DNA of 57,512 nucleotides, filler included, from Dimargaris cristalligena (taxonomy: Eukaryota): the NCBI GenBank assembly GCA_003614675.1. It is 2 parts of 2 records of this genome, joined end to end, with 100 filler letters (N's around TTAATTAATTAA, not from the genome) between each part and the next. Parts side by side here need not be neighbours in the genome. Positions count along the whole stretch, not along the records: positions 28,822 to 57,512 come from ML002497.1; 1 more part is not named here. One strand, 5' to 3'. The notes under the pieces were generated by a model. The model was given only the letters and a program-made list of their open reading frames with translations. It was not told where the DNA came from and did not search any database. Below are positions 15,655 to 50,855 of this stretch, piece by piece. Numbering within the stretch: position 1 is the first letter of the stretch; each line of letters begins with the position of its first letter. Position numbers and translations under genes: made by a program.

Positions 15655-18000
15655 CTAAACACTGAGGACCATAAGGTCGCGTGCAATGAAAGCCTTGAAT
15701 TTCTGGGTATTAAAAACTAAAGCTGATGAGGCCGCTGAGATGCGATGCCTGTAACTCCGGCATTGGTCAATTGTGCTAAGGAAAATACCAAAGTATATGG
15801 GCTTGAAAAGGCCCCGTCGACAATAAATGTGAATCACATAAAAATCGATATCATAGGAAATGATCCACAGGCGGATGGTGGAAATTTGGTCGTGGGTAAG
15901 TCCCTCGGGCTGGACGGCGCCCTCTTTTATCAGTTTGGCGAGTCGGTATTTGACCATGGGGTAGTTGACAGGGTTGATGGCATCGGGCCGGGGCTTGGCA
16001 TGCAACCACTGTCCTACGGGAGAGTGAAACCGGGCGATCCGGGCCGAAATGCGTAGGAGCAGAGGGGGCGGGTTGAGAATGCCATCGAGACTGGCACGAG
16101 TTTTGCGGATGTTGGCCAGGGATGATTCGATGGAGATATGTGTTAGGTACACATTAGTCAGGGGAAAATAGCTTTGGTAGGGGCCGTTGACGAATTGCGT
16201 GAAGCGCAGGCGAACCAATTGACGACTTTGCTTGAGAAGGTCAGCGGGTAGGGTCTGGTTGGGAATGGCCTGGTGGGCTGAATAAGGCACGGGGGAGCCG
16301 GCGGATACCCCGGGGGACGAAGCGGCCATTGTAATACAGCCCGAGTCGGGCGGGTGGGCCAGTAGGATAAATACCATGATCGGGTCACCGACCGTTTCCA
16401 AGAATTTCTGGCCGTTGGCGGGGTCAGAGGTGGGTACCTCCATTGGACTTAAACGCCGGGGCGGAGTAGGTTCTTCCAGTAGCCTGCGCGTTATATCGGA
16501 CGAATGATCGGGTGAGGCAGAATCCAAGAAATGGCGTAGAGATAACATGACTAATAGCGGGCCCGAGTGGCGGTTGAGGCAATTTACATCGATTGCAGTC
16601 AGGGACCGGTAAAGTGCGCAGGTATCCCGTATATCCGCGGGAAATAGATCATTCGCGTGTTCACGGGCCTTGCCAATAAAAGTAGACCATTGGGCGGTAA
16701 TGGACATCCAGCCGCTGTAGCAATCGAGCACAAAATCGGGTATAGGCTGGGTGGGCCGGGGGGCATCAGGGACGGCGATGAGAGTCCGAGCCATGGCCTC
16801 GGCCTTGGCGAATATAAAGTCCTCGTAGGGTCCTAGTGCGGTCTGGAGAATCCGGTGATAGGAACTACGGGTCTTGACAGAACTCAGGATATTCTCCAAC
16901 ATAGTGCACATGGTCTGAAAGGAGACGAAACTGCCCACCAACCAGTGGTAGTCCCGCAGCTGCTCCTTTTTCCAGTAGAAAAAAGTACGCAGGATAAATC
17001 GGGCGTAGGAGGCCAGCGGCGATCGGCCCACCGGGAAGGGGGGCTTCGTGACAAACAATTGCCACCGAATTTTGGCGTTCCAGCGATACGAATAGGGTAG
17101 CAGGTGGACCGTTTCGGTTAAGTAATCCAAAAACACCCCACAAAATCGGACCAGGACCGACAAACGGTGGTTGATGGTTCGAAAGCACCACGGGTCGCTA
17201 TAGAGCTGCATCCGATTTTGGGTCTGGTAATAAGTCTGTTCGACGGGGTTATGAGCCGGCCACATGGGACTTTGCTGGAAGACGTGCAGCGGGTCGGCAT
17301 ATAACTCGGCATCCAAGTCCACCTCGGGCATGGATTGGGCGGCAAAGTGGTAGGCATTGGCGCACAGGTGGTTAAACTCGAAGCCCTGTAGGCCCGACCT
17401 CATGAAGTGGTTTCGAAAATCGGGGAATGATGCGTTTGGTAGTTGCAAGGCCATATTTAAGTGTTGCTGCTGAATAAAAGCTGGTAGGGTAGGGTGTCGC
17501 TGCAGAAACAAGAAGAGTCGCCAGACTTCCCACTTGGTGTCGAAGCAGGGCGCTAAGCGGGCGCAAATTTGGATGAATTGGCGGGGATTGAACGCGAAAT
17601 GCTCCACAACTGTTTGGATGAGTAGGCGTTGGTCCTTCCCAATTGGATCGCCCTTCAATCCCACGACTCCCGAGGGCTCGTGCCGGGCCTTTTTCAAGGC
17701 GTCCTGGAGTTTCCGACTTTCGCTACGAAGGCCCTCTCGTTCCGATTGAAGACGGGATAGTTTGTCGCCAACACCCATGGGTGACTGGAGGTACTTGAAA
17801 TCTGCCAAAACACATTATAGTATTGCATACGAGATACTTAGTAAAAAAAATGTGGATTCGTATGGCGGCAAACTATTGGACGTTTACATGCCGGTAGTCG
17901 ACTTACTCTCGAAGTATGTCTGGTAATTATGATTAAAATTAGAACCAGCGTCATCTTTCTTCAGCTCGGTGAGATCGTGCGACGATATATCAGGGCTCAT
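15655..18000 (-). CDS. Divergent IQGAP/Gap1-like protein (RasGAP-related domain plus RasGAP C-terminal region), ~746 aa; exons 18000-17907 and 17801-15655
   Basis: LVRFCGVFLDYLTETVHLLPYSYRWNAK resembles the IQGAP GRD segment (FL..I..S...IPYGMR.IAK), LYADPLHVF resembles L.TDP..IY, and C-terminal KYRLAKLIKEGAV...LVFNTQKF resembles the IQGAP C-terminus. The intron has a GTAAGT donor (17906) and GCAG acceptor (17802) and is in frame. Confidence 0.65.
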
Positions 18001-28721: not shown

Positions 28722-28821
28722 NNNNNNNNNNNNNNNNNNNNNNNNNNNNNNNNNNNNNNNNNNNNTTAATTAATTAANNNNNNNNNNNNNNNNNNNNNNN
28801 NNNNNNNNNNNNNNNNNNNNN
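28722..28821. other. Artificial contig-joining spacer (44 N + TTAATTAATTAA + 44 N)
   Basis: Exactly 100 nt and symmetric. The 12-mer at 28766-28777 gives stop codons in all six frames. Confidence 0.95.
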
Positions 28822-29049
28822 GCGTAAGTGCTCGGCCTCCAGCTTATGGTTGTAGAAAGCACGGCGATACTTCTCTAACTCGGCCTCGGTCTGTTCAAGC
28901 TTAGTTTGAATCGGATGGACTTCAATGTTACGGCGGGTCAAGGCGACGGGGTGAATGGCCTCGGCAAGCTCCTGAAGATCCACAGGTGTACCGCTGGCAA
29001 TGCTTCCATCGGATGAGGGATGTCCTGTTGAATCGTTTATCGGTGGCAT
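28822..29049 (-). CDS. 5' part of an unknown coiled-coil-containing protein, truncated by the contig end (host gene or gag-like ORF)
   Basis: An ATG at 29049 opens 76 codons that run into the gap, with heptad-like IQTKLEQTEAELEKYRRAFYNHKLEAEHL. A TATAAA lies on the minus strand near 29260. Confidence 0.45.
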
Positions 29050-30820
29050 GTTAGTGTAAAGTGCGGATAGGGCAGTAGGTTAGGTAAGGGTAGGTCGACT
29101 GAAGATAGGTACGCGGGCAAACCTATAGGCACGAAGCGGGCAACCCGGGCTGGCAATGGGTTGGAAATAGATGGTTGAATAAGAGAACCTCTGGGGGATC
29201 AAAATGAATTCAAGTGGTAGAAGATGGCGAAACTAAACCTGGCTGGACACTACTTCTATTTATACATATTTTTGGGTACCAAAGTAAACCCCCCGCACCA
29301 TCCCAGTCTGCCATTATTGGTGTTGGCCTCCAGGGAATTCTTTGACGCGATGATTAGAGTATTTAGTAAAGCCAGTCCCTGTCCATGAGCCCATGGCTAC
29401 TTTTCCCTTGAACAAATGGCTGTATTGTTCATTGCATAGGGCCTTCCAAGGTCTGGAATAACAGGGTGACCGCTGCGTTTGATTTCCTCAGTATCGCTCT
29501 TCCCAATCAATTAAACTCGACTCGAGAATACGCCCCCCGGAGTGCGAAGTAGGTCATCAGAGCAGATGGAAAAGACAGCATCCTGCCATAGAAGCTCGAG
29601 TATTCCACGACACCGACTGTCCACTTTGACGGGCACTTTACTTCCCCCTCGTTCACCGCGGTCCATGGTGGTGGGGCCAGAGCCCCGAACATTTTTAATC
29701 AAATAAGATTTCGGGGAGGAAGGGGGCTTCGGCAATAAAAACCAATCACAATGAAGGAAGGAGACGGGACGGTGGGGTGGATAAGCCGATGGGAAAACGC
29801 CCGAGTCTGATGTTTAAAGCAGTTGGGTTGGGCGGGGCATATCTACATACCGTTGAAAAGACGGGTTGTATATAAAGAGATATTCGGAAGGGTCAATGGA
29901 AGAAAAGGCAAAAATACAAGGAGGATGGGTGAAAGTGGCCCAATAGGGCGGGTGAGAAGAAAAGGCTATTAAGTAGAGAGGTTTGTCCTCCTACTTTATC
30001 TGGCATACTGTTATGACTGTTGAATCCAATGGTGTGGGTCTCACCCAAACTCGAAATCTTAACCCACAGCATCGAATACCCGGGCAGTCCATCCACTATC
30101 TAACCCTACCCTGCCCGCAGATGACAATGTTATTGTAACGGGCCACTCGGCCAATAATAGCGCGAGTGTGTCATACACTAGGATGGAGGGATTTCCCCAT
30201 CGTTGGTTATCAAAACCAAGTGCTCCCGCCCCCTGTTGCTCGGGGAGGCTCTTCCCTGTTCTATAACATCCTATGTAATAAATCCCTATTCCTATATTTC
30301 TGTAGTGCCCATTTCGCCCCATTGACCCGTAACACTATAATAAATAAAAGGCCATGCGTCATACCAGAAGCCAAAGTTCTGCAGGATACCATTTCTCAGC
30401 TATCAATGAAGCAAGGGGTGGTGGACATGGTATCTTGAAAATCAAAACATAATTACACTGGCCATGGATCTACAAGCCCACTGAACCATCGGGATATACT
30501 ACCTTTCCACCTCCATGTGACCCCTACCCCTCCCCTGTACATTCCATCAACGGCCTTTTCAAATTATATATTTCTTACGTTGGTGGGTCCTGTAGCAATA
30601 CTGATTCGCTGATTTCGGCAACACACTCGGAAAACTGTAAATATAACCGTACAAGAGATTAGATATAAGGAAATATTTGGTGGTATGACATGTTGCTTAA
30701 CCACCGAAGCCCCTCCAGGCACTTAGATTTAATAAGATTCTCATATAGTAAAATAATCAAATACTAGTCCTTCTAAAACCACCAAATGCTAAGTGATATA
30801 GTAACAGGACTAGTATACCC

Positions 30821-32527
30821 CTAGACTGAAGGTCCAGTAAGATTGACCAGCTCAAAAGTGACATTGCCCATAACCTTGGTAGCATAGTGACGGCACTGGG
30901 TGTAGAGCCGTTCAGGGTCCCCCGGCTGGGTCTGAGTCCAGCAAAAGGGTAGATTTTGACGGGTGACCTGGCGGTCCTCCAGGAAGCTGCCATTGGGAAC
31001 CTTCTGGGCCGCCTTGGCCATGGCCGCCCAAATAATAGTGTCCACCCCCTCCGCTGGTGTACAGAACACATTGTGGAATTGATTATAAAAACTGGGTAGG
31101 GCAATTTGGATAGTGACCATATCTGCCCACCCCGGGTGCATGCTTAGAAAGTGTATCCCCTGGGCATTGCTGTAGGTCCGCGCCCATACTTGGGTCAGTT
31201 CAACCTGCTGACGCTTTTTGTGGCTGTATGCCACATTTCCACTGTAGGCATGTTTCTTCATGGACTCCAGGTTGTCCAGGTCTAGTGGAGTCAGAAACAT
31301 GCCACCCGAGGAAACCATGACAACTCGGGCAGATCCTGTACGAGCCAACAGCGGAACCAATAGCTCCGTCAAATAGTAAGTACCTAGGATGTTGGTAGCG
31401 AAACTATGCTGTATGCCCTCTGGAGTCACGCTCGCCATTTGCAGCAAACCGCCAGTGTTATTAACCTATGATGTAATAAATCGGACGGGGTAGTACCAAA
31501 CCAACTAACTGGTGAGTCTTCTGCTGGAAAGAACATCTATCTATGGAGAAGGACTTATCTCTCTATGCAGCAAGATGCCGTGGCTGTAATTGCAGCACAT
31601 ATAAATCGGTGATTTACCAAAATATTGCAATGGGAGCTCAGCTGATTAGCGAATTTCTCGACGAATGCACAAATGCTAGGTAGGTTATCTAGGCTCATTT
31701 GGTCAACGATAAGGTTATTCTTGAGATGGTCTGTGATTTCGGATTGGGCCACTTCCTGGCGAGCCTCTTCCAGAATTTCCTCCCAGGCCTTGCTGGCATG
31801 CTCCCAATTACAACAAACCATATGGACCATCACCCCTGATGTAGAACATTAAAGAGTAGAAAACCGCGGCCTTTGAATTAGCACATGGGGGCATACATAA
31901 CAGGAGATGGCTCAAACAGTCGCCGGGGTCAGTCCTTTAATAATAACACCTAGTCATGAAGACCCACTTTGAGCACTAGGCCATGAAATGAGGACTATAT
32001 GGTCGGGATAGGTATAGCATAAGGAACAGTTTGCCCACCATGGAAGTAATTCCTTGAGTAGTTTTTTGGCCAACTCAAGGAAGATCATGGGTGATAATAA
32101 TGCACCATTGCCTACTGTATCCAACTTACCTTTGGTTAGTAGGGATAGGGTGGTGGCCTTTCCCAGACCACTGTTTGCTCCTATGTCTAATGACAACATT
32201 TACAAAATAAGACTTGGAGTTTTAGAGCAATGGGCTAAACAACCCAACCAGCACAATAAGTGGTTCTGTATAGTACTTGTTATCCTTGTGGTACTCCCAC
32301 CAGTCTATATGGAATGTGCCCTGGAAAAAGTAGGTGGCAAAACACTTTGCCATTTACCCACTGGGGAATGTAATGGGCAATGACTTACCAGTAACCACTG
32401 CCACTTTCCCAACTAGTGACACATCCAGCGCATGGGGCTCGAAATGCTTGGCCTGTCTCTTGAACCTGGCCTGGGTGCTTTGGAAATAGCCCTGGCCCAA
32501 CCAAATAGGGTACCTAATGAGGTGCAT
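30821..32527 (-). CDS. DHRS12: DHRS12-like short-chain dehydrogenase/reductase, 350 aa, open but apparently degenerating; exons 32527-32389, 32180-32130, 31835-31618, 31465-30821
   Basis: VVTGANSGLGK (TGxxxGxG), VNNTG (normally NNAG), FATNILGTY, VSSGGM, YSHKKRQQV (YxxxK), SMHPGWAD and DTIIWAA. The exons splice in frame. Confidence 0.85.
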
Positions 32528-32955
32528 TGTGCACTTCAGTAGTCCAAAGTGTAGAACTGGGCACTGAGTGAAGTATAGGGAGAGCAGTCACGACCAAAAG
32601 GGATACCGAAAAACAGAGCTATAAAATGTCTAGTAAGGAGCTGTAGCGGGTAGGTTATACAACTAATAGAGTGTATTAAACCAGATTACATGTTTTTCAG
32701 CTTAGTAGGTCGGCCTCAGAATTTTATATATAGGCAAGAACTAGTGAAAAGAAAGTGCAGTCAAACATTGGCATGGTGGGAACAGCCATAAAACTCCTGA
32801 CCCCCTGGCATGGATTCACATGCCAGGAGATACGCCTAAATTATTGTTCTGCAGCGGGTCTCGAAATCGTCGTATATCAGATCAAAACTTGGCACTTCTG
32901 TTGAGAGTCAGTTGACCTGGCTGGTCATTGTAGTAGGCTAACTGAGGTACTATAT

Positions 32956-33091
32956 GGGAGTAGTTCAACAAGACTGTATAACGAAAAATCCATTTGATGA
33001 GGCAAGTACTGCTGGTTGAAAATAAACATCCCACCAATTTTCCCATACACATATTGGTTAAACCCTTATACAACCAAGCTGAACTTTACCC
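32956..33091 (+). mobile_element. MITE copy B (136 bp)
   Basis: ATAT|GGGAGTAGTTCAACAAG...AAGCTGAACTTTACCC|ATAT. Differs from copy D at only 4 positions. Confidence 0.9.
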
Positions 33092-33209
33092 ATATACTAT
33101 CGAATTGCTCCAATAGATGCTAGAAATGGAGTATAGCTCCAGTCCAAAGATTACGACAGCAAACCTAACAATCAGTAGATTTATAATTATTATTACAAAG
33201 TGTATATAT

Positions 33210-33345
33210 GGGTGAAATTCGGCCCAGCTATATAAGGATTTACATTATACGTGTATGGGAAAATATATGGGAAATGTATTTTTAACTAGTAATATTGGCC
33301 AAATCTAATGGATTTTTCGTTATACAGCCTGGATGAACTTCTCCC
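33210..33345 (-). mobile_element. MITE copy C (136 bp), inverted relative to B
   Basis: ATAT|GGGTGAAATTCGGCCCAGCTATATAAGG...GAACTTCTCCC|ATAT. One end is nearly identical to the end of copy A. Confidence 0.85.
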
Positions 33346-34982
33346 ATATGGCATCGTTTCCAAAATGGTAAACATGGGTGGCTAAACAACCGAGTGGCCT
33401 CAGCTCTGATGGGCATGGATAGATAATTTTTGGGGGGGGTGATGTGGTTGGTCACGTGTACGGAGGAGGGACTGGGCTGAACTAAGCTATATTGTGTGTG
33501 GGTGGGTGGTAGAGAGTGGTAGTGGACATGGAAGCTTCGCGGACTGTTTTCCATCCATACCATTTGACCCTAGCCAGTGCTATATTACACCCCATGGGGC
33601 CCTCTCCTTTGTGAAGCAGCAGGCGATACCCACAGGGATGTTGGTGGTGTTTCTCCCACCCTCTATCCTCATTTTCTCTATAGAAGAAGGCGTAAAACAG
33701 TCTGCTGCCTCAGCGAATGGGCAAGCGATGGATGTGTAACACCGAAGAAGTCCAGCCGCAGACTCAAATCACCCAAAGAACTATGCCAGTACACACACCC
33801 TAGCCTTGTTCGCTTGGCCAAAGGACGGGGGTACCAAGTCTCTCTCTATCACAGTAAACTATAACCAATACTCTACGCAATTTTATGAATCAATATTAAG
33901 AGGTGTAGGTGGGTGTTGGCGGTGGTGGTAGGGGGTACCTCAAGGTAACCCCTCAAGTAATGCAGACTGCCAGCGGTTAACAACCCGCTTTTCTATATAT
34001 ATATATATTTTATTTTCGCGCACGCGGCCCCGCACATGAAGCTTGCCGAAATAAGGTAGAAAACCAGAAATGAAGGAATGGTGGTGAATACTCAGGAGAT
34101 GTTGAATTTTTATTGAAACGTACCAAAAGAAAAAAATCAATGACAGGCAAGGGCGCCACGAACGTAGGTTTGGTGTGGTCGAATGGCACCCACCTAATGT
34201 ATACTGTAGCACGCTTGTAGTTTACACTAGAGTATACCATTTTCCGAATAAGAAAATGATAATGACAGCACACACACACATATATATATATATATACATC
34301 TCGAATATTAAAAGGATGCCTAATTTTAACACTGACCTATTTTTAAACCATGGTTGCACCTAACCCCCGAGAGACTGTATATCAGTGGGGCATTGCCAGT
34401 CGTTCAATCGGGGCGATTCAGCTGAAGTGTAGATTATGCTGCGGTCCATGTAAGTCACCCTGGACCACCATGACTGAGCTAAGCCTTGATTACACCGCTG
34501 TCCAAGCGCTGTTGGATACACCGTACGCCTTTTGGCGCCACCGGCCGGGTGTACTACTCTATCCTACACCTGCCATTTCCTTTAAATACACGTACCATAA
34601 ACCCCCCCTACGTTACCCTATTTTATTATATATTTAATGTGTAATCATTTCTGCTGTCCGCCCCTGCGTATCGAGGATTAGAACTAAAGGACCAACAGTA
34701 AAACTCGACGAGGCGAGAGGACAATTGGAAAGAGGCTAAACGAGGCGAGACAAAGCGAAACGGAACAGGGCTAGATGGGAGAAAGACGGATGAGCCGGGG
34801 GGGAATGACGACGGTAACCCATAATAATGGATAGGCCAAAAATAACAGCCAAGGTGGCCCAAAATAATGGAGGATTCGAACCAATGGGTAACTCCGTGTA
34901 ACAATCAAATTTCGGATAATGGGAAGTCTGGGCCATGGGCCAAGTCTTTATATATCCTAATTGAACAATGCGGTGTATGGAA

Positions 34983-35006
34983 AGAGAGAGAGAGAGAGAG
35001 AGAGAG
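34983..35006. repeat. (AG)n microsatellite
   Basis: About 12 AG units read directly. Similar short AG/TA tracts are scattered through the intergenic regions. Confidence 0.9.
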
Positions 35007-36805
35007 TAGAAGAGCGCGCCATTAAAGGTCAGGATAAAGGGGAATAGGAGAGGAGTGGTAATCGAATGCAGGCAAGATACCCCCCTGTCGCGTGCCTCCC
35101 TCCCCCCACTCATTTAGCTAGCACTGGAGGGAATGCTTTAATCCGGTATATTGGGGAGTGGTATTGAAACTCCGCCGACCCTTCCGTGGCAATGAAAGTG
35201 CTAAAGAAGCCACACACCCGAGTTCATTAGCTCTTTCCCACTCCCACCGTCGCTTGCTCTCTCTCCCTTTCTATCTATATTTGGCCACCACCGCGTGGCC
35301 ATGCATTCGGCTGTTCCAAGTAACTAAACCCCTCCTCCGATCGTGGCCGTGTGAAGCCTGATCGAGCCGAGCGGGGTAGAATGGGCACGCGGGGTCGACC
35401 GAAAAAGCATCACCGAAAGTGACCGCGTCTAAATATGCAGCTGAGCCATTGGTTGAGATGATGGCGAAGCTGTGGGACGAGATATTGGGTTGATAGAGTA
35501 ACCCATGGGCATTGCCAGCACTCCCATACACACACTCTCTCAAGGCCTAATCGGCTGAAGCAATAGTCCACCTCCAAGCATAACCAGGAAACCGGTAGGA
35601 AGTATTAGAGCGGCGGGCCCCCCCCGCAAGGTCTCGAATGGGTTAGTTCGGGTCCGAGTGTACTCCATTGACCCACTGTGCTGCTCCGATTATACTTAAT
35701 CATGGTCCCACGGCCGAATCCCTCTTAATGACACCGCCTCAAAGCACTGCATAGCCCCACAATCTCCAGAGCAGAGTGGGTGAGTGGGAAATACAAAATC
35801 GAGTTGTCCATTATCACCTTAACGGCCATCTAAGCCCCCCTTTCCTGCAACAACTCTGAGACTTGCCCCGCCTAGACACCAGTTTTAAATAAAGCGATAA
35901 TCTCGATATTCCTAGACCGATTTAGTCACTGCCGCTTGGCTAAAATTGAGAGTATTTCATTGAGACAGTTCTTCTATAGTCGACAGATTATCCACGGAAG
36001 TTTAATAAAACTGCTTATACTGATATAGGGGAGATGCAAAAACCATTCAAACAGGAATACGCACATTAAACCATACAACTAAGACAGCGGATAGAACATG
36101 GGGTCATTAAAGTAAAGGAGGCAGAGGGGGTCTTTATATGGGGATAGGTAACATACGGGGGAGGAGAATGCGGTGGGGGAGCTCAAACAACGAAGATAGT
36201 CAAGAAAAGAAAGTGTGCACAGGGGATGAGAAACTCTAGACAATAGAACTGTACAAATATATGTATATATACGTGATTTAACACGTATACATCTTATCAT
36301 GGTGGCATGGGAAGAGAATAGGTAAAACAGGGGTAGATATAGAAGTAGGTGAAGTAGGGGTGGGTCGGATGTATAACAGCAACTCTGTACCAAGTGGGGG
36401 TTCATTATACCGGGTTAAACAGGACGAACAGACGTTAACATGTGTAGCAGTAAATCGATGGAAAGGTCGGTAAGAGGAAAAGTAGAATAAAACAAGAGCG
36501 GGGAGTAGTATAACACGGGAAGTGACGGAGAGGATTCGGGGTGGAAGACAGGAGCGGTGACGATTTGGAGAGGACAAGCGATGGTCGATACGAGCCAAAG
36601 ATGAAGGGGGGAACGGAGGGAGGATGCAGAAGACGCAACAAATGAGGGAACCGAGGGGAGGAAGACAGGAAACGACAAATAAAAGGGGGAAGGGATAAAA
36701 AAACAACTGAGGCGCGCGACAGAATAATAGTGTACAGGAGGGGGTTGAGAGATATAGAGATGGGGAGGAGGTGACCTCCGTCCGTTTCCCCCCACAGTCG
36801 GGGGA

Positions 36806-38014
36806 TTAGGGGATAGTTATGGTGTCCGTGGGTGGTCGCAGTGCAGGAGTACAGCCGTCTGGGGGGTGTGAAAGAGTGAGGGGACAAGTAAAAGGGGCCG
36901 GTGAGTCGGTGCAGTCCATGGCTTGGCGGGGGATGGGGGTAGCCCGGGCCGAACCCACTCGGGGGGCACAGAGACTCGTGGCGGTGGCGGCCGCGGTAAG
37001 CCGGTCCGCCATGGCGGCAGGGTCGGCAATGGGGGCGGGGCGGTGCAGCCGAGGGTGAGGAGGGTAGTCGGCGGGCCGGCCCAGGGCAGCGGCGGTGGGG
37101 GAGGGAGACGGGGGCACGGTGGAACTGTCCATGGAGGCGGCGGTCGGCGTAGGGGTGGTGGCCGTGTTACGGGACCGGTTGCGTTGGCTGGGAAAGGTCC
37201 GGGAACGCTTGGGGTCGTTGGCGGCCTCGAGTTCTGAGATCTCGGAACACGAACGTTTGCGGTTCCGAATAGCCTTGGACTTTTCGGTGGGGGTGGGGCG
37301 GCGGTCCTTGGCAGTGTCCTGCAGCATGGACACCTTGACCCGATAGTCGAGGGTGATGGCGGGGGGAAGGAGGCTAAAAAACTCCGACAGGCGGCAAAAA
37401 TCCCAGGTCTTGGTTAAATTGCGGATAAACACTTCCCGGTGCTGGGAGGAGGGCCAAAACGACGATAGGGAACCGAGGAGCTGGGCGATTTGCGAACAGT
37501 TCCAGTCGCGGGTGACCTCCCGAATGAGAAGCGCGCGGCGGGACTCGGCGGTGGCCACTACGTCGACCATGTTAGCGGGACGGTGGGGGTCGCGGGTCTC
37601 GGCCTCTTGCTTGGCGACGTCTACCCAGTCGATGGTGACGTGACGGACCACCACGGCGATGGAGGCCAGGGTCCAGCCGGAAAAGAGCCACTTCAGGGCG
37701 TTGGCAATGCGGTCTATGGGGTAGTCGTTGGCAATACGGTAGAGGTAGTTGCTGGTCATGGTCACGTTCTCCTCGCACTTGAGCCAGTGGCCAAAGGAGG
37801 CGCCATACAGGCTGTCCATTTGTTCGATACTGGTGCCCACGTCCCGCCAGCTGGTGGAGGTGGGTTTGTGGGTCAGGTTGGCCAGGGAAAGCTCCTCCTC
37901 CAAGCTGGGGAGGGCGTTCTTAGTCATGGGGGAGTGGAGGCCCATGTAGGGCGGTTGTGGGGGGTATGTGGAAGTAGCAGCTGGCGAGGGCGACGGCGAC
38001 GAAGGGGAGGCCAT
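36806..38014 (-). CDS. Uncharacterised 402-aa protein with a helical Trp-periodic core, putative bipartite NLS and low-complexity termini
   Basis: Single long ATG-initiated ORF with GC3-rich codon usage like the true genes here. Globular core at about aa 55-230, then RNRKRS...PKRSR. Confidence 0.8.
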   Translation of the reverse strand: MASPSSPSPSPAATSTYPPQPPYMGLHSPMTKNALPSLEEELSLANLTHKPTSTSWRDVGTSIEQMDSLYGASFGHWLKCEENVTMTSNYLYRIANDYPIDRIANALKWLFSGWTLASIAVVVRHVTIDWVDVAKQEAETRDPHRPANMVDVVATAESRRALLIREVTRDWNCSQIAQLLGSLSSFWPSSQHREVFIRNLTKTWDFCRLSEFFSLLPPAITLDYRVKVSMLQDTAKDRRPTPTEKSKAIRNRKRSCSEISELEAANDPKRSRTFPSQRNRSRNTATTPTPTAASMDSSTVPPSPSPTAAALGRPADYPPHPRLHRPAPIADPAAMADRLTAAATATSLCAPRVGSARATPIPRQAMDCTDSPAPFTCPLTLSHPPDGCTPALRPPTDTITIP

Positions 38015-40978
38015 CAGGGTAAGAAAAGACTTGGGCGGAAGGGGCTTGGGAAAGGCAGGAAGGAATACTACTACTACTACTACTAGGTTGGACCGAGGAA
38101 CAAGTTAAGAGAGAGAGGGCTTGAGGAAGATAGCAACCAAGAAGAGAAAGGAGAATAATAATAATAATAAATAGAAGAAGGAAAGAACAAGTTGGGTGTA
38201 CTTTACCAAGCGGAGAGAATATTAGTAAAGAAACGGGAGGTCAAGTGCATACAAGCACAACAATAGCAAAGCAGGGCATACAAGAGAGGGTCAGGCAGAA
38301 CAGTAGTAGAGTCTATTGGGAGACAATAGGGCGGTTGGGAAAGAGGAGGGGGGGGGGCTTCAAGGAGAGAGGGGGGGCATCGGTCCAGGAGACGGAGAAA
38401 AGCACTAGCTACAATAAGCGTATATATATAGAGAGAGAGAGGGAGAGAGAGAGGAGTGCACGAAGGAACAGGTTTGCTGTATGGAGAAGAGGCAGGTCGG
38501 CGGGTATTTATATATATATATAAATTTAAGCATCTATATAAATAAATGTATATATTTATACGGAGAGTGCGGAAGAGAGGAAACCAAGGCAAGCAGGAAA
38601 AGGGGATTACTGGGGCCTGGACGGAAGAGGACGGGCTAGCGTATTTATACAGGCAAGCAGGGTTAGGCGAGGGTCACCGGAACGCAAGCGGGGAGGGAAA
38701 CAGCACCTGGTGTAGCCAATCCCGGGCTGGCCCAGGGGTCCGTGAGGGTGCTTGCGGTCTCTTTCCACTGTGCAAGTGACTGTGGCGGCCGCTGGATTGC
38801 CACAACCCCCCCTCTCTCTCTCTCCTTCATTTTTCGCCTTGCCTCCCACCCACCACTAATAGTAGTAGTAGGAGTAGTCTCCCCTCACCCCCATCCTCTC
38901 CACGGCACCCTCCATTGGCTTTACACCCCACCCACTTTATCTCTCTCCCTTTTCCCCATAATGAAATGGCCACCAACCTCAACCTACACCTCTTTATGTG
39001 GTAATAAACCATTTAAGGCCCCCCGGCAAGCCCGCATTGCCGCTGCCTAATAAGCGTAGAAGGGAGTTGCCGGGGGACCTTTGTTGCGGTGGCCTACGGA
39101 TTGCATTACCCATTGCTCCCCGACCCGGCGAATAGCCCCGAGGAATCGCGGGTCTTGATAATCAGGCCCAGCTTCATTATCGCTAGACCGGTGCGCTATA
39201 TTCAACTTTACCGTTGAATCGGGTTGAATTAATCGGACGAATCCTCTCCCTTCGCCTACCTCACTCGTGCTATTTCGGAATTTATTATGTTTGGGGCTAT
39301 GCCGAAGAAGCTGCACAACTCCTACAGGACTCTTCGCAAACACCCCTTCCATTTAACTACCTACCCATACCTCCCGGAGCAACCTATTTCCGGCCTACGA
39401 CTATAATTCGTCCGTATGTTCCTATATATAATGTTTTTACTTAGTTCTTTTCTTTACCCCTTCATGCTCTAACCCAAAATGTTTCATCGAACGGTGCCCC
39501 ACGAATCCAGTGGCAATCTTTGGCGATTACCCTTTTTCTCGCCCCCCTCCCTTTTTCTCTATACATCACCCTGGCAGCCGCTTCTCGGCGTGGTGTCATT
39601 TTCAACCCCACCCCCCCTCTCTCTCTCTCTCCCACATTATAGGATTGGTCCAAGGAAATAATGAGATGCGCGGCTATAACAGGCCCCTGTAATAATCACT
39701 TACCGCCGGTCCCCCGTTTGTGAGCTTGTACCATCCCACCCATCCCCATAGCCTAGTAATGCTGATGCTACAGCCGAATCCGAAATTAAATCGGAAGCCG
39801 GGCCGACGACGAGAAGAAGAGAGGGAGAGAGAGAGATAAACCGATAAAGACGCACCTCTGTCCTCGCGACCCAGCCCTTTGGTGTTCCCTCTACCAATTA
39901 ACTCACCTTAACTGGAATTCGGAACCGGCCCTACTCCAGCCAGGGGGGAGATAAAGGCAAGGGAAAAGGGGCCTCATATCGACAGATACAGGCCAGAATG
40001 AAACGGCGTGGTTAACAGATCATACGCGCTAATTATTAACCTACGCTAAAAGGGCCATTCATGGGGGAAAGATAAATAGATACTGTGCAGTGTAGCCCTT
40101 TTTTAAAAAATAAATACATACATGAAGGCACATCATCTTGTTCCCTCCATTTCCAACGCAGTAATATCGCCTATTCGATGGCTTCATACTCCACACCAAT
40201 TGTAATAGTTAGGGGGGTTTTTTATAGTAAATTGTTGGAGTTGGTCCTACGCCAAACATTCCACCTCCTTCTTTAGCCAAATCACCCTTATTTAGGCCTA
40301 AATAGCCTACATTTTCCAGACCCCCCTTTCTGACCCTAATACACTCGAGGGTGACCCATTATGCACCGGGGGTGCGTGAACAATGGGTCCCCCCAAAACA
40401 TCCCCATTATAAGCACACCACCATTGCCTCCGTCACTCCTGGACAGGGCCTCTCCTGGGATACACAGTCAACCTCTAACTAACTACACACCTCTCGTATC
40501 TTGCCTTATTCCGAACCACTGCCCTCGTATTCGGTGGGGCTGCGTCGAACGTCCGAGCTATATACCCTTTCAACCTGCATAGGATGATTTCCAGCCTGGT
40601 GCCGCTGAACGCTGCGGGGATGGCCCGATAGCAACCCTCCCCCCGCATTTTACATGATAGCCGCTGACCAATAACAGCACCCTGTGCAATAGAAAGCCGG
40701 TTACCGGAACATTCCCTTCGAGAAACCCTTGGTTTTCAGCACACGATCGATGATGGTCCCTTTTACGGACTTATAAATAGACCACCAATGTGGCGGCGAG
40801 GTTCGAAACCAGAGAAAAATACCTGCACCAGCCACAACTGCATCCATGTCTAAAAATATACGGTGAGTCTCGCTGTTATATCTACTGCCATTATCCGCTT
40901 ACCATTACTATACTGCACACACACATGGAATATTTATGGGTGGGGGAGAAAGTAGTCGATACTGCCCATCCAAAATAT

Positions 40979-41114
40979 GGGTAAAGTTCAGCTTGGTTGT
41001 ATAAGGGTTTAACCGATATGTGTATGGGAAAATTGGTGGGATGTTTATTTTCAACCAGTAGTACTTGCCTCATCAAATGGATTTTTCATTATACAGCCTT
41101 GTTGAACTACTCCC
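40979..41114 (-). mobile_element. MITE copy D (136 bp)
   Basis: ATAT|GGGTAAAGTTCAGCTTGG...GAACTACTCCC|ATAT, 132/136 identical to the reverse complement of B. Confidence 0.9.
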
Positions 41115-44100
41115 ATATATATTCCACGGCCCTAAAAAAGGTGATTACCAAATTCACTACCACCCCGGCCTTACTGGATTGGGCCTACCAGCCGTCCATA
41201 TTTGCCTCGCCATTATCCATCTATTTATCTATATATATATATATGTATATGTATCCCCAACTACCGCTACCACGGCCTATTTTTCGCTGTATTACACAAG
41301 GCGAATGGCTAACCAAACACGGACTATGGAATTTTCGACGCGCCTCGGCGTTGACGTTACACAGCCGGTATATAAAACAGCCTCCCCAGAAACTCCGCCC
41401 ACCAATAATTACGAACCAATGAGTCGGCTGACCCATCCACAGTAGAGAGGGGGAGGGTGGTAATGGAAAAGTGCGGGAAATGAGAAGAAATCCCACTATG
41501 AGGCGATCGTTACTTTCATCCCCTCCTCCTCACCCACTCGTTCCGTCGTTCCTCTTGTGCGTTCGGTTCTCACACGCTTTGGAGGTTTTTCCCCCCGTTC
41601 GATCATCGTCGACAAAGACACTAAGATTCCACATCGACCTGACTGCCTTAACGTCTTCTTTTCGCACCATTACTGGCCTTTCCTTTCCTTTTTTGGCCTG
41701 ACCTTGCGTATACCCCTGCCCTAGTTTAATCAGGCTGCAGTGGGGCTGCTTCGACACCGCCGCTGGCGAACAGCGGTAATCTCACATCCACAACCACAGG
41801 GGTATAATGACCCGAACCTCCGGCCCATTTTAATAGGCCTGTAATCGATGTAGGATTACTACAGGCAAGAGGCCATGTACCAGTCCCGGCACTAATATAT
41901 AGCGGTCCTTTACTTGTTTGTGCTTATTTTTATTTAAGCATCCCCTAAAATATATGTATGGACTGGCATTTATATATATTTTTACCATATCCCGGCCTTC
42001 TTCAGCTGGACAAAGCCTCATAACCAACATACCAGCCTGATTTCCTTAATGGTATTAAATAAATAGCGTGGACTTGGTTTTGGGTGACTGTACTAAAATA
42101 TAGCTTAAGGTCCACCCTTCAACGGGGTCGTTTCAGTCAAGTCCGCCGCTTTAAACCGTAAATGATCTCATACTCTCATGTAAAAGGAGTGACAAGTTCT
42201 GGCAAATGAAGGCCATGGGCAGTGACGAGAGAGAAAGAGAGCAGGGGGGTTGGAGAAAGAGATGGGGAAGTTAACAATGGAGTAGGATGGTTATCTAAAG
42301 CCAGGCCACCCGGGATTTTTCCATCAGCGCTTGATGGTCAGCTGTGAATAAGAAGAGTAGGCGGTATTCTGCGAAACCTAGTTAGTATCCCCTTTTATAC
42401 TGCATACCACGAGTCCTTCCTTTAGTTTTAGGCATGAGTCGGGCCAAACGTCCCGCGCTAATTGGCTTATTTCCCCACCCCTACTCCCCTCCCCATTCAA
42501 TCGTAAGTTCGTGGATTAGTCCATTTACCCAGGTTTAAATGTTTCATTTTTTTATTTCCATTTCCATTTTTTATTTATTTTACACCATCAATCTCCATCG
42601 CCTTTAATAGTATCATCGGACAATTTATCATTGTCCCAAAAAGCTTTATATTGGGTTGGTTAATCACTCTTGAATATCCCCTCCTATTCCAATAGGTGTC
42701 CCCCCCCACCATTTCTTCATTTCCCGTCCCCCTCTCGCCGTTCACTAGAAACCCAGTTAAACCGCCACTGTGGCTTAAGATACCAATTGGGTGACCCGGC
42801 GGACTGTGGCGGAAAATGGCGGGATTTATTTATCACTCACAACCTCCTTGTCGGCTCTCGTATAGTTCATTAGTTAACTAGTGCACTTGGTTTATGCGCC
42901 GTGTGTGGGGAGGGGGAGGGAGGGAGGAATGGTGGTTTAGTTTCGCCACTATCACCACCATCGCCATCACCTATGAGGCAGGAGGCTCTGGCCATTTTCA
43001 TATATAAACCCCACAGGATCCACGGAAGTAATGTATGCCACGTGCATCTCACCAATTTGGGACTGAGCGTGCGCTGGTCAATAATGATGAGGGAAAGGGG
43101 GTTGTATATAAAAAGAGGTTGGTAAGTATATAGACATATATATATATAAAATGGGGGTGGGGAAATGAAAAGGAGAATCCCCGGAGTGATGTTTAGGATG
43201 ATCCCAGTCTATAGTTTGTGGTTATGATGGGGATGGGGAGGGTGATGTAGAAATGGGGTGTAGGATACCGACCACCCCTCTTCCTCCTCCTTGGCCTCCA
43301 TTAAATGGGGATTCCCAATTATTCACCTACCCCATGTCGAGGCATAAGTGGTGATAGTGGTTGGGATGCTAATCCATCGGTGGTTGTATCGGTGCATCAC
43401 GACATGATAAGACTGATGTGGAAGGAAGAGAAGGGGAGGGCAGAGTAGAGTAGAGTGGACAGCACGGGTGTAGACTGTACTATACATCGGTGTGGAAAAA
43501 TCGACAGTAACGGGGTAAACCCTCCCTCCCCTTGGGGAGAAGGGGTGCGCACTTCGACCAAGATGTTCGGGACGGCCAGTCGTCAGCTAGTCAGTTAGTT
43601 AGTTGGTTGGTCTTGAACGATGTTTATATTTATTTTTTTGAGGGGGTATTTTAAATTTACATTGGCAATCACCCGATATGAGCGTGAGCGTGTGTGGAGT
43701 GCGGGGAGAGAAAAGGGAAGAGGAGACAAAGAATGTGAACGAGAACTGTTACGGTGGGGTGAAGTTTTTCATTTGCCTTGCAGTTGGCCGTGAGGGTTGG
43801 GCTGTGGGGGAGATGCCCTGCACTATGCATGGTAGCGACTAATATACCCTGCGGAGAACCCAACGGGACTGGCCTGGTGTTGGCAGCACCAGGTGGTGTG
43901 GTGTGGTGTGGTTGGGTAAGTGGGAGGCCACACAATACCCGTCGGGGACTATACCTCGGTGGACCTCCTCAAGTAGCTGACATTGCAATAGTCGAGTCGA
44001 GAGTATAAATTAGGTCACCGGCAAACCAGTGTTAAGCTATGTCAACAAAAAGATACTAAGGGGGGGATTTATAAGGAACATTGGTAAAAAAGGTAAAGAA

Positions 44101-45857
44101 TACAAGGGGGAAAGGGAGGGTGGAGAGGTGAAAAATGAAGTATAACAATAATAAAGAATAGCAATAGTAGGGAGAGGGCTGTGCTAACGGAAGTTGATGT
44201 GGATCGGCAAAGAGAGTGAAGCAGCGGGAGTGGGAGTGGGAAACCTAACGCCAGCTTGGGCTGACTCTACTCCTCCTCCTCATTTAGCCGTTCTCCCTCT
44301 TTTTCGGTCTCCCTCTCCTTTCTTTCCCCTCATTCCTCGTCATTTTTGGGCCTCGTTTGTCACCATTTTAGTCGGAAGGGGGCTTGGCCATTGATAAAAA
44401 TCTACCAGAGGAGAGAGAGAGAGAGAGAGAGAATGGGAGAGGGGGGAGTGCAGGCTATAGTAGTGTTTTCTTCCCCACCATTGTTAGTACCCTGACAGCT
44501 GACTGGTATAGAGAATGCACCCTTGAATCTTCTCCAACCACTCAACATTGGCATACCGAAAGATGGATTCGCTATTTGACTGGTGCGATGATGGGTACAG
44601 GCGGGGCTGATTGATTGTAAGGAGGGAGAGATGGGGGAAAACCCAAGATAAATGGGAGGAGTACGGGGGAGAGGGATGTGCCGCCCTAGTGAAAGAATAT
44701 CTATATTGCAAAGGTCGATGGCGTTCGTCCAATATGAGTGATCCGCTGGCGATGATTGTGCCCAACCTTCACTTTTCACACACCTACCCCACGTACTCTC
44801 TCATATATACATATATATAAGATTAGAAGTCGTTGGCGGGAACCGAGAATAAAGAGATGTACCATAAACCAGCGGCGCGGCCCAGCTCGGTTCAGCTCCG
44901 CCGCTGGCCAGGGTGTCGAACGAGTAGTGAATAAGGCAAGTCCATGTGCTTGATCATTAAGGAGTCGGCGGTGGACAAATGGCCAACGAAGGGACCTCTC
45001 CTCATGGGCAGGTATTTTTAATGCCGAAGGCGCCCCATTCTCGGGATATGACCATCTCCGACTACTTTTCTAGCCGCACCTCATATCCCGCACTTACCCA
45101 CTCCCCACTCTCACCCACGCCCCCCTCTTGTCGCGTGGGTTGTCCGCTGTGAAGGTATTGTAAGTTCGCCGAGGGTCCTTCCTTGGGACCCTTACTCTCA
45201 GTAGGGCCACAATGGCAGGCATCCGAACTCGGTGGTGGACGAGGGGTGATCAGGTGGCCAGGTCACAGACCTGCCCCCTCCCCTCCCTCTCGTTCATTAT
45301 GATCCATTTTGCTATTACCAGAGGCGGGACTGTCACTACCCTTTCCTTCCTTCCCCACCCCACATACATACATTCACACCTTGTTTTAGGCAAGTCTGAC
45401 TGGTTTAATGTATGAGGGGGTGCCAGGGTAGGCGTGGGGTTACATTGTCCCCGTCGAGGGTTAGGGTTTTGACCGTAACAGTACCCAGTCTTGAACAGGG
45501 TTATTGGGGATTAAATAGGTAGAGGGTGAGAGGAGGGTTGGGGTTAGATCCAGACTGCTGGACAATGCTAGTCATGCTTGATTGAGTCGGTCCTTTTATA
45601 TTCCATTACATTCTTGATGTTTCCTTTGCTCTTCTGTCGTTGGCGGTGGGTTCCCAATGGGAGGGGGGCTACATTTACATTTACATCTCCACCTCCTAAC
45701 CCCCTTCTCCCCGACGATATCGTCACAATCAAATTTACCAACATGGCCTAGCCCCAAGCGTGCGGAGGCAGTGAACTGACAAAGACCCGAATTAAAATAG
45801 GAAGTAAAGGGGTGAATAACACTATATTGCGGCATACAGGTGCCATACACACACACC

Positions 45858-45883
45858 TATATATATATATATATATATATATA
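45858..45883. repeat. (TA)13 microsatellite preceded by (CA)n
   Basis: Read directly. Confidence 0.9.
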
Positions 45884-48800
45884 CATCTGAATCGGTGCAC
45901 TGACTATCACCCCGCATATTGATAAATATATATAGTTTGATGACTGGTCCCTAGGGGGGAGATTGTGATGGGGCACAAGGTTCATGTATGAATCTCTCGC
46001 TTCACTGTAGAGCCCTGGTGTAGAGGCGACTTTAACCCCATTCTCTGCCAGACTATCCCTCGACATGCGACCTCTGTTTGGGCTAATGCACCTAATGGTT
46101 CAGTTCCCCTTGGTTGAGTGGAGTGCACCCACATAACATAACTTATAGCAAAAATAATCATAATAATAAACCTCGTTTTGGTAGTCCATTTCGAATGCTT
46201 CATTTGTGTGTAGGAGGGGGGGGTTGTTATCCTCAAACCATAGCATTGTTTAATCATGCAGACTTGTACTATCGGCAAACATGATTGCTACAGTTGGTGA
46301 CGGATGTCAACAAACCCTTCAGCAATGAATAACAGTAGCCCATGTCTGTTATTGCTTGCCCCCTGGTACGATTTTCAGAAAATAGCTGCATACCAGTGCC
46401 CCCCCTCCCCCAAACAATTACCACTCTCTCTTTCTCTCCAGGGCACCCGCAGGCCTATTGACCACCACCACCTTATATTAGCGCTTGCTTAGAAATTGGT
46501 ACATAATAGATTGATTATCTTTTGGGCGGGACCTCAAGTTTCCACCATCTCTCCCCCCTTCTTCGCCTGTTTGGTCCAGTACTATAATTCAGTGCCCATT
46601 AGTAAATCACAACACACCACACTCCCAAAAGTAACAACAACTGAGTAATGTCTTTTTGAATGGACGTCGCTGTGTTATTATTGACATGTAGTCCCCACCT
46701 TCGTTTACAGCCTAGTCGGGACGATCATTCGCCTTTTTGGGTGCTCCTAGGGTAAGCAGACAACCAGTGGGCGAGTTAAAACGGGGCTGCGATTACAACT
46801 TCTTCTTTTTTTCAATTCAGCTCTGTTCTAACCATGGTGTATCGAGAACTTTCGGATGGGGGTGCGTGCTCCCGGTGAATGAAAATCTAAACAATATCAA
46901 AATTCTGGTAAATTCCGCCCGGTGAGGGCAGTCCTATTCTGTAAGTCCACTCCATGATGACATGGGTAGTGGTGGGGTGTGGGTAGAGAGGAGGTCCGTG
47001 TACATGTCCATACACTGGCACACCTCTACTCAGAGGTAAACTATTGGCCCTATTTCGTAAACCCACCCTTTTCCCGAAAACTATACACTACATGACTATA
47101 TTTAGATCTGAAAGTGGTGGTTCTTCATTCGCTTCTTTTAAAGTCATCAGTGATAGAGAGAGTGTGTAGGGTAGGTGATTGCATACAGTGCCTCACTAAT
47201 TATTATCACACTATTCCAGCACATCTATGATTCCACTTTTTTCTCTGGAGCGCTTGAGTATGGATTCAGCCAGTTTAGCCATGTGCTTCGAATGGAAGTA
47301 CTTACCTAAATTACCTGTGGTATTTCAGACAATTGAAGACATACTGCGTCTTCGGAGCCACCTCATACACTCATTAGAGTCACAGAGATGGGGATGGGCG
47401 TGGGCGGGGGAGAAATCCTCAGCGATCCGAGTAGTTGCTCATTTTCTTTTTTAACCAGTCAAAGCCATAGCTGCGGCTTGTCCTAACTACAGCCAATAAC
47501 CATTCAAACCAATTTCACATCCTCCCGAATGGGATTGCCATTTTTTAGAATATAAATTCTTATATTCCCCCCTCAATAGTGCAGCAAACCAACATATATA
47601 TATATATATATATATTTATATTGTCTATTTGGGCGTTCCATAATATGGGTTTGTCAAACCATCTACATATAAACAGATTAAGCCACTCTCGAACGAAGTG
47701 CAATCTTGTTGTCGTTGTAGGGACTCCGGTGCCCTGATTGACCCAACAAATCGGCAGGTCGGCGGATTTTAAACCCCTCCCCTCCTAAAATACCCCTTCC
47801 TCCCGGGAAAGAAGAATGTCATTCTGTTTGCCCAAGTTAAGAAGGGGAGTGCGAGTCAGGGAGGATGGAAAGGAGGGAGGGAGGAGAGACTTGTAATTCC
47901 TATGCGTCGAAGGTATATTCATTTTACCTCGACCCCTGGTATGCAGGTCCAGGGTATACCAGCTCACCAGGGGACCGTCGGCCGCCTAGTTCAACGGCTG
48001 GCATAGAGGAGGGAGCAGGTCTTATTATCACTGCCACCTCATTCCCATTCTCCACCGAGGAATCCTTCACCCCCTTTATGGCCATGCTTAAAGGACCATA
48101 CCGTATATCACGATCTCTTTAAGAGCCCCTCCTTCCTCCCTTCGTTGTTATTTCCACTTATCCCAGTGGATCACTGGAATCCGGGCCGCTAGAGCTCCAG
48201 TGGGTAAGCATGGTGAGGTGAAGATAGCATTGTATCTCATTAGAATTGGTTTATTTCAACAGTCACGCGGGTGGAAAGGGGGGTTTCAGTGACCCATCAG
48301 GTACACTCGGCTTTCGTGTAGCAACTATTCCGGATTGAAGTCGCTGTGAATACACTCATATAGGTATGCTGCTTTTTAATACCCAAAATCCCTCTCTTTT
48401 CTCACTTACTGGGCCTTTTATGGCCAAGCGCAACAGTTTTAGGAACGACCGTTGGCGGGCTACTACCAATTTGGAACAGAGTGCTGAAGGATCGCAACCT
48501 CTACCTATCTTTGACATAGTTTTTGCCGAACAGTATACGTCGTGCTAAGACAAGTATGCCAATGAATTGACTAGTCCGGCGATGTAGGCTCAGGGTGATC
48601 GGGTGAGTATTAGAAATGTCCCTGCTTTTTATGGATATACGCTCATACCCTTCTCTTCTCTTCTCTCTCTCCCTTGACAATTCTTGGTTCCCTCAGCTAC
48701 GGAATAGGGGTCTCTAAAGTTAACGGATGGCACTTTAGTTACTTCTCACCCAGCAATGTCATATTAAAGCCGCTGTGTTTGAAACATAGCAGTGCCGAAA

Positions 48801-50256: not shown

Positions 50257-50717
50257 GTCTAGTAAGCATGATGATTCGTAGTATCTACAATGTTGCACAT
50301 CGTGGATTCAGCGAATTAAGCGAATATTCAATAACAGTAATATAAGGCCGGTTTTTGGGGCTAATGTAATTTTATTGGACCCATTACATTACTAGCTTAG
50401 CCGTACTCCCTGCCCCAGGTTGGAGCGCGCATTTTATTTTGGTACCGGGGCCTACATTGGTAGAACAATATCAATCTTATCGACATTGATTCAAAAAGCA
50501 GACGTTCTAATTGGAACCGGGGGTTAAATCTGATATATGGTTTGGCAATTTTCATGGACACCGCCCACCCCACGAGAACTGTTTGCTATTGCGATTAAAG
50601 TATTCAGAGAATCAACACTGTAGACAGTGGTATCATCGGTGTTACATCACTCGAAAAAAATTTACTAAAATACAGTGTTGCAGTTAGTGCACGACAGGTC
50701 TAAGAAATAGAGAATAT

Positions 50718-50855
50718 GAGTAAAATTCAGCTCGGCTGTATAAGGTTTTAACTAATATATGTGTATGGGAAAGTCGGTGGGATGTTTATTTCCCACCAGT
50801 AGCATATGCCTCATCGAATGGATATTTTGTTATACAGCCTTGTTGAACTACTCCC
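50718..50855 (-). mobile_element. MITE copy E (138 bp)
   Basis: ATAT|GAGTAAAATTCAGCTCGGCTGTATAAGG...GTTGAACTACTCCC|ATAT, clearly alignable to B and D. Confidence 0.88.

Follow-up and report, generated by a model that had tools for sequence, protein, structure and literature searches.

Can a gene whose reading frame is still open already be decaying? The question is raised by a DHRS12-like short-chain dehydrogenase gene of the mould-parasitic fungus Dimargaris cristalligena, located in a 57,512-nucleotide stretch of assembly GCA_003614675.1 (two parts of two records joined end to end; hereafter the window). The initial annotation, made from the sequence alone, described a gene with intact frame and introns but with many substitutions of the C>T or G>A type at presumed ancestral CpG sites. 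It was read there as a duplicated or transposon-associated copy, silenced by CpG methylation or by a CpG mutator resembling repeat-induced point mutation (RIP), caught before its first nonsense hit, and as a footprint of homology- or repeat-directed genome defence in an early-diverging fungus. The placement of the organism is right (Kickxellomycota, Dimargaritales), the observation of CpG-deamination-type substitutions was confirmed, and the interpretation was partly supported: the locus probably reflects methylation-linked CpG decay of a duplicated, repeat-adjacent gene.

The splice model of the minus-strand gene (Table 1) has GT..AG borders at all three introns and gives a coding sequence of 1053 nt (350 codons and the stop) with no internal stops, so that frame and introns are intact as annotated. 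The public D. cristalligena protein RKP37422.1 (P0241) was the same as the window model except for a two-residue splice choice caused by an acceptor 6 nt upstream in the public model. In the intron 1 acceptor region (32168-32186), this upstream AG is taken by P0241 and by a second public model, P0121 (KAJ1973206.1), giving VVTDIGANSG; the Gly-rich region reads VVTGANSGLGK in the window splice model and VVTDIGANSGLGK in the public models. Because the downstream AG yields VVTGANSG, the Gly-rich motif of the family, both public models are probably mis-spliced at this acceptor, judging from the sequence. Homologues were searched with the single-exon references and P0241 as queries. Exon 4 had 915 related proteins at E <= 0.001, the best match (99%) being a D. 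cristalligena protein, and relatives named DHRS12, both fungal and animal, showed 40-51% identity over 87-95% of the exon; the Pfam family adh_short reached 26.0 bits on exon 4 alone, slightly below the cut-off of 26.6. The cofactor motif of short-chain dehydrogenases/reductases (SDR) is the Gly-rich TGxxxGxG, which the window protein retains, as it does the catalytic Ser and Tyr-x-x-x-Lys (VMVSSGG and AYSHKKRQQ, aligned with VTVSSGG and AYAQNKRQQ of the homologues). Among solved structures, the sole relative found was a distant bacterial SDR (3RD5, E 6e-11), too remote to place the lost residues described below.

Observed/expected ratios (o/e) of CpG and of TpG+CpA were computed in sliding steps along the window, and the gene was found to lie in a local CpG-depleted, TpG/CpA-enriched tract, the most CpG-poor of all 4-kb intervals of the stretch (step 500). 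CpG o/e in its four 1-kb bins was 0.52, 0.53, 0.27, and 0.47, against a mean of 0.82 (standard deviation, 0.16) in the remaining 53 bins; outside the tract, the window gave 0.82 for CpG and 0.97 for TpG+CpA. The edges were graded on the left (~29750-30750) and located at ~33750-34000 on the right, and the CpG deficit thus extends beyond the gene. The two ratios were 0.39 and 1.26 for the gene span (0.80 and 0.98 for the whole window) and 0.42 and 1.29 for the coding sequence, and the CpG minimum of the tract in 500-bp steps (0.11 at 32001-32500) fell at the 5′ end of the gene. Eight other coding open reading frames (ORFs) of the window had values of 0.83-1.09 for CpG, with which the gene does not match, and 0.89-1.06 for TpG+CpA; for the neighbours encoding a CCT subunit, a GTPase, and RPL14, next to which the locus had been judged CpG-poor by eye, the ratios were 0.97/1.06, 1.04/0.93, and 1.09/0.96, respectively, and that judgement is borne out.

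The supposition that the gene is a duplicated copy was upheld by public proteins, variant contigs, and depth. P0121 and a further protein, P0135 (KAJ1974966.1), belong to one accession series and lie on different contigs. P0121 has 5 residue differences from the window protein. P0135, a second copy of 216 amino acids with 88% identity over 36% of exon 4, is without the GANSGLGK exon and, through the absence of residues 158-274, without the catalytic Ser, Tyr, and Lys. Six DNA runs from three studies contain the stretch, and contigs of four of them (X1, X2, X5, and X6) were compared over 28830-44000. The right flank was single-copy, and X1 contigs there had 0 differences from the window over 6.4 kb and 2.9 kb; over the tract, contigs were short and differed from the window, an X2 contig spanning 30273-32978 having 15 differences. 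Variant and reference-like contigs stood side by side within X1 (e.g. 60.4/189.2 at 31233). Contig depth in X5 was 424-870 over 28830-32762 and 151-164 on the right flank, so that depth to the left of the repeat was 2.7-5.6 times that of the right flank. A C>T change at 30939, in codon 312 (Table 1), had depths of 133.2/133.2 in X1, 45.6/45.6 in X2, and 0/618.4 in X5. The DHRS12-like gene is therefore multi-copy in D. cristalligena, and no intact second DHRS12 of this species was found among the 120 matches listed.

Base differences between versions were taken as the best-supported 40 of 261 rows, 39 of which were classified after exclusion of a row at 41014 in a miniature inverted-repeat transposable element (MITE); this scope applies to all listed differences hereafter. 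Transitions made up 35 of them, 24 at CpG sites and 11 elsewhere, and the other 4 were transversions. Of the 30 differences located at 30139 or further right, 24 were of CpG type, compared with 1 of 9 to the left of 30000. Transitions and transversions per run numbered 88:13 in X1, 40:10 in X2, 193:26 in X5, and 32:11 in X6. The base 5′ of the mutated cytosine showed no preference (A7, C6, G6, and T5 of 24). At 30459/60, 30720/1, 30865/6, 32787/8, and 32821/2, CA in one version stood against TG in another, which indicates the loss of a single ancestral CpG through a hit to one strand in one copy and to the other strand in another. The same picture was obtained at the protein level, where 32 residue differences over 216 aligned residues between the window protein and P0135 corresponded, with P0135 codons deduced by minimal change, to 35 base changes, namely 27 CpG-site transitions, 7 other transitions, and 1 transversion, in agreement with the proposed C>T and G>A changes at ancestral CpG. 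The spectrum is CpG-specific and two-directional: the mutated version was the window at some positions and P0135 at others, and both were mutated at C72/H, H132/C, and Q290/W, three sites at which CA stands against TG. Between 29017 and 33168, 7 of the 11 non-CpG transitions, including the stop change of codon 312, lay in CpA/TpG context, which may reflect a faint additional preference for CpA or may simply follow from the enrichment in TpG/CpA. The listed differences in exon 4, 3 synonymous and 6 replacement or nonsense, are small numbers in which purifying selection was not evident.

The window protein was aligned with 110 listed homologues of 290-375 amino acids, P0121 and listed matches outside this length range being excluded. 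Of the 79 columns with a conservation of 85% or more, it breaks 19, the Ser, Tyr, and Lys residues not being among these 19; the homologues break 3.4 on average (standard deviation, 3.4), and the orthologue of Tieghemiomyces parasiticus breaks 12 of the 79. The Dimargaris protein was less similar than the Tieghemiomyces protein to 103 of 109 outgroups, with mean identities of 34.9% and 39.1%, respectively. R72, T252, and R271 are the most invariant columns broken; all three are kept by Tieghemiomyces and were changed via CGT>TGT or ACG>ATG (Table 1). The Arg after strand 2 (VCR), the Thr of HPGWxDT, and the Arg of LRT have presumed roles in cofactor binding. At position 72 the sister copy P0135 has His, so that this residue and the Cys of the window (TGT) both derive from CGT. 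In addition, H76, W81, and C119 of the window are Arg in both P0135 and Tieghemiomyces; the NNAG motif has become NNTG (codon 140, ACT), with Ala in P0121, P0135, and 95% of the 110 homologues; and M186 is Thr (ACG) in a sister contig. From the substitutions first listed, R72C, H76, W81, C119, T140, M186, T252M, and R271C were thus sustained by P0135, Tieghemiomyces, the homologues, or a sister contig, while two fell away: W75 is common to P0135 and is Pro in Tieghemiomyces, and V277 of GVDT is shared by Tieghemiomyces and P0135 and therefore predates this decay. In its length class, Gly-rich motif, and Ser/Tyr/Lys residues the window protein resembles DHRS12 (dehydrogenase/reductase SDR family member 12) of animals and early-diverging fungi. 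It departs from it in that NNAG reads NNTG, the Arg following the second strand is Cys, the Thr of PGxxxT is Met, and the Arg of LRT is Cys. Because three near-invariant residues are lost, the window copy is, on the alignment, most likely no longer a working DHRS12 enzyme.

The open frame weighs little against this assessment. CpG transitions create stops from CGA codons only; of the 85 Arg codons in three ordinary window genes, 13 were CGA. When 56% of CpGs were removed at random from six window ORFs in a simulation, 350 codons stayed stop-free with a probability of 0.23-0.80; since CpG decay often leaves such a length without a stop, an open frame is no evidence of function. Codon 16 is CAA in the window and, by minimal-change inference, CGA in P0135, so that it was hit on the opposite strand and a stop was narrowly avoided in the window copy. 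The statement that the gene was caught before its first nonsense hit accordingly holds for the window frame but not for a sister version, which has W312*, and it is less telling than it sounds, stops arising at CGA only.

The association with a transposable element was likewise substantiated, by a high-copy MITE pair that precedes the start codon by ~425 bp. Terminal inverted repeats (ATATGGGAG... / ...CTCCCATAT) and TA-rich flanks characterize the family, which comprises at least two subfamilies, and its copy number is very high, with a bin depth of 3e4-3e5 in three runs; at the first copy of the pair (32951-33096) bin depth was 4.9e4-2.3e5 versus ~45-160 nearby. The pair forms a 408-bp imperfect palindrome in which 32952-33349 matches its own reverse at 68.6%. 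Among five MITE copies, the transitions divided into 9 of CpG type, 12 of CpA type, and 7 others, against 18 transversions, while 5 columns were multi-state; the window copies are too old and mixed to weigh for or against CpG decay. MITE proximity alone was rejected as the cause of the depletion, since no halo of low CpG surrounds the four solo copies, whose 500-bp flanks had a CpG o/e of 0.52-1.11. The tract overlaps the multi-copy DNA of 30000-32950 and the MITE pair; the left flank at 28830-30000 is spared, and single-copy-depth DNA at 33350-34000 is affected. In Pfam scans of 127 ORFs of at least 90 amino acids in the window and of 23 flank ORFs at E <= 1, no domain of a transposase, a reverse transcriptase, or any other mobile element was seen within the tract or next to it.

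Table 1. Features of the window discussed in the text (positions along the whole stretch)
Feature	Position	Strand	Remarks
DHRS12-like short-chain dehydrogenase gene	30821..32527	minus	exons 32527-32389, 32180-32130, 31835-31618, 31465-30821 (stop included)
Codon 72, TGT (Cys)	31810..31812	minus	VCRN motif; Arg in 99% of 110 homologues
Codon 252, ATG (Met)	31118..31120	minus	HPGWADT; Thr in 100% of 110 homologues, Tieghemiomyces included
Codon 271, TGT (Cys)	31061..31063	minus	LRT; Arg in 100% of 110 homologues
Codon 312, TGG (Trp) in window	30938..30940	minus	TAG (stop) in the sole contig there in X1 and X2
CpG-depleted, TpG/CpA-enriched tract	30001..34000		CpG o/e 0.45, TpG+CpA o/e 1.18
MITE-like copy, ~146 bp, terminal inverted repeats	32951..33096	minus	97% identical to copy 40975-41119 (self-BLAST, alignment)
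Second MITE-like copy, other subfamily	33203..33349	plus	inverted relative to the first
Solo MITE copies	7094-7232, 40974-41123, 50711-50860, 51781-51889		
Exon-like ORF, Dimargaris-only orphan protein family	28822..29079	minus	multi-copy left flank, not CpG-depleted

The spared left flank carries an exon-like ORF (28822-29079) whose single match among 1.84 billion representatives was P0242 (RKP34862.1 / KAJ1993277.1, a hypothetical protein; 58% identity, E 1.2e-19). It adjoins two 44-base N gaps (28722-28821), its contig depth in X5 was 869 versus ~155, and CpG o/e at 28751-29250 was 1.04.

Further genes recognized by the Pfam scan of ORFs were SAE2, RPL14, IPP-2, the CCT subunit, a GNL1-type GTPase, and an arrestin-domain protein, and neither a tRNA nor an Rfam family was found in the window. 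Three long minus-strand open frames (497-3169, 15658-17814, and 36809-38104; 891, 719, and 432 amino acids, respectively) had normal CpG content (0.88-0.98) and were without a Pfam match at E <= 0.001. CpG was also depleted, though less strongly, at 43001-47500 (500-bp CpG o/e, 0.39-0.84), with values of 0.39 for CpG and 1.27 for TpG+CpA at 46001-46500; the bin 42998-43503 stood out by a higher depth in X1 and X5 and by joints to the MITE. At 38001-39000, CpG o/e was 0.45 and TpG+CpA o/e just 0.84, which is not deamination-like, and the CpG poverty there is probably compositional; small indels between runs were located at 38065, 38348, and 38811.

The explanation that we consider probable, methylation-linked CpG decay, runs as follows. 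The DHRS12-like gene has been duplicated in D. cristalligena, the window holding one of the copies, and the gene with ~1 kb on each side would form an island of CpG-methylated, probably silent chromatin beside the high-copy MITE pair. Methylated cytosines would deaminate to thymine, which would explain why each copy has lost CpG to TpG or CpA independently of the others. CGN Arg codons thereby became Cys, Trp, His, or Gln, and ACG or GCG became Met or Val. Sister copies are further decayed, one with a nonsense codon and one without the cofactor-binding exon and the catalytic region, and the window frame is still open because the CpG spectrum gives stops at CGA only. The several copies, the two-directional CpG spectrum, the tract, and the lost conserved residues are observed; we infer the presence of 5-methylcytosine (5mC), the silencing, and whatever directs methylation to the locus. 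As to the suggested homology-directed defence, the copies were indeed each hit by CpG transitions; targeting by homology is doubtful, the multi-copy flank at 28830-30000 being spared.

Several points weigh against this account. That flank is equally multi-copy in X5 (~5-fold depth) and has a normal CpG o/e of 0.61-1.04, with 1 of 9 listed differences of CpG type, so that copy number alone does not predict decay; at the other end, the tract continues for ~650 bp past the right side of the MITE pair, where the DNA (33350-34000) has single-copy depth. The window MITE copies lack a clean CpG spectrum (28 transitions : 18 transversions). For the copy-number estimate, contig depth in a single run was the main basis, X1 and X2 being covered very unevenly; the classified base differences are the best-supported part of a longer list (40 of 261 rows), and the minimal-change codons of P0135, taken from its protein, slightly favour transitions. 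Furthermore, the frame is open, the Gly-rich motif and Ser/Tyr/Lys are kept, and the Tieghemiomyces orthologue is likewise unusually divergent, so that the product may be a changed but working enzyme. Such a lineage-specific DHRS12 variant would owe its CpG poverty to regional or gene-body methylation or to spreading from the MITEs, methylation would be unrelated to duplication, and the new residues would be tolerated or adaptive. The canonical splice sites, the conserved columns broken and V277 carried by the Tieghemiomyces orthologue also, and the fact that CpG loss is deepest at the 5′ end, beside the MITE pair, fit a working variant; it is nevertheless improbable, considering that R72, T252, and R271 (99-100% of 110 homologues) are replaced here and kept in Tieghemiomyces, that sister versions have a stop or large losses, that the few listed exon 4 differences give no sign of purifying selection, and that the solo MITE copies have no halo.

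The CpG changes could also be the work of a duplication-triggered, CpG-specific, homology-sensing mutator, a RIP analogue that deaminates all copies in bursts (e.g. premeiotically). Every known copy was hit independently and in both directions, no intact second copy appeared among the matches listed, and the non-CpG transitions fall largely in CpA/TpG context. An X2 contig that is 99.4% identical to the window differs from it at 10 listed sites, 8 of which are CpG sites; four of these show CA versus TG, so that both copies were mutated at one ancestral CpG. This implies a mutation rate at CpG far above that of other positions. We regard this mutator as unlikely, because the multi-copy left flank is spared, the tract edges are graded and spill into single-copy DNA in the manner of spreading chromatin marks, the context is plain CpG as maintenance methylation predicts, and RID-dependent RIP is confined to Ascomycota according to Amselem et al. 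(2015, PMC4352252). An artefact, arising either from amplified single-cell libraries assembled into chimeras or from C>T errors due to damage, is suggested by the extremely uneven depth of X1 and X2, the two N gaps at 28722-28821, and several places at which the window base is absent from X1 or X2 contigs; it is very improbable, since the window protein equals the public RKP37422.1 and related versions are present in a second accession series and among the runs of three studies. Errors from damage, besides having no CpG specificity, would not remove CpG across 4 kb and leave the adjoining 10 kb in agreement with X1 contigs at 0 differences. Methylation-linked CpG decay is accordingly retained as the probable explanation.

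Comparable systems are described in the following papers. CpG signatures of repeat decay were tied to Dnmt1 subfamilies by Amselem et al. (2015), and Rhizoctonia solani AG8 shows CpG-biased, repeat-proximal hypermutation (Hane et al. 2014, PMC4014442). The Dimargaris locus resembles this decay of Dikarya in its CpG-concentrated transitions and TpG/CpA excess, in its association with repeats, in its leakage into neighbouring sequence, and in that host coding sequence can be hit; it differs in that the cases known from these sources are Ascomycota and Basidiomycota, whereas Dimargaris belongs to Kickxellomycota, and in that the substrate is a small host enzyme gene family whose sister copies reveal which way the changes went. 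RIP, as known from Neurospora and other Pezizomycotina, likewise brings C-to-T and G-to-A transitions to duplicated DNA, hits every copy, and disables duplicated genes; it is associated with the RID methyltransferase and with premeiotic timing, and it acts on all duplicated segments above a threshold of length and identity. Its classical form prefers CpA, as stated by Hane et al. (2014), whereas the Dimargaris changes are at CpG with no 5′ preference; the Dimargaris gene copies are mutated, and a multi-copy neighbour segment is spared. A CpA preference of the RIP type was rejected, 24 of 35 listed transitions and 27 of 34 codon transitions deduced from P0135 being at CpG. Repeats of Pucciniomycotina undergo TpCpG hypermutation (Horns et al. 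2012, PMC3318451), which is similar in having a CpG-containing target, in being repeat-associated, and in occurring outside Ascomycota; a TpCpG preference was rejected, with a 5′ T at 5 of 24 mutated cytosines versus a background of 0.28.

Outside Dikarya, CpG methylation of transposons and a DNMT1-related enzyme are described for Rhizophagus by Dallaire (2021). In the table of supplementary file 1 of Funabiki et al. (eLife 2023, PMC10538959), the DNA-methylase columns contain entries for Coemansia and Linderina (Kickxellales, of the same subphylum), and Linderina is scored as positive for 5mC; Dimargaris is not in this table. The published focus in zygomycete-grade fungi has been N6-methyladenine (6mA). 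The literature search found no report linking Dimargaris with 5mC, DNMT1, or RIP, and none on CpG decay in Kickxellomycota. The main texts of a phylogenomic study of RIP (PMC12543289) and of a DNMT review (PMC7862722) make no mention of Dimargaris or Kickxellomycotina, nor does the main text of a 2026 review (PMC13297926) mention Zoopagomycota or Kickxello- names.

CpG-biased decay of repeats itself is already documented in Dikarya, and the D. cristalligena locus adds a case from Kickxellomycota. It is a gene-sized example with internal controls, in which sister copies give the direction of change, the orthologue and 110 homologues give the ancestral residues, and untouched neighbours give the background, and it offers a good site for 5mC calling and for separating homology from repeat proximity as the targeting cue. 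It also calls for caution in annotation, as gene models that appear intact in CpG-poor tracts may be pseudogenes in the making. That D. cristalligena possesses a duplication-triggered, CpG-specific mutator disabling every copy of a duplicated host gene, a RIP analogue outside Dikarya, is a proposition to which we give little credence; if true, homology-directed genome defence would be older, or more often reinvented, in fungi than thought, at the cost of blocking evolution by gene duplication. With apparently no intact DHRS12 copy left among the listed proteins, the locus suggests that in D. cristalligena a host enzyme gene, and not transposons alone, can be taken down after duplication.

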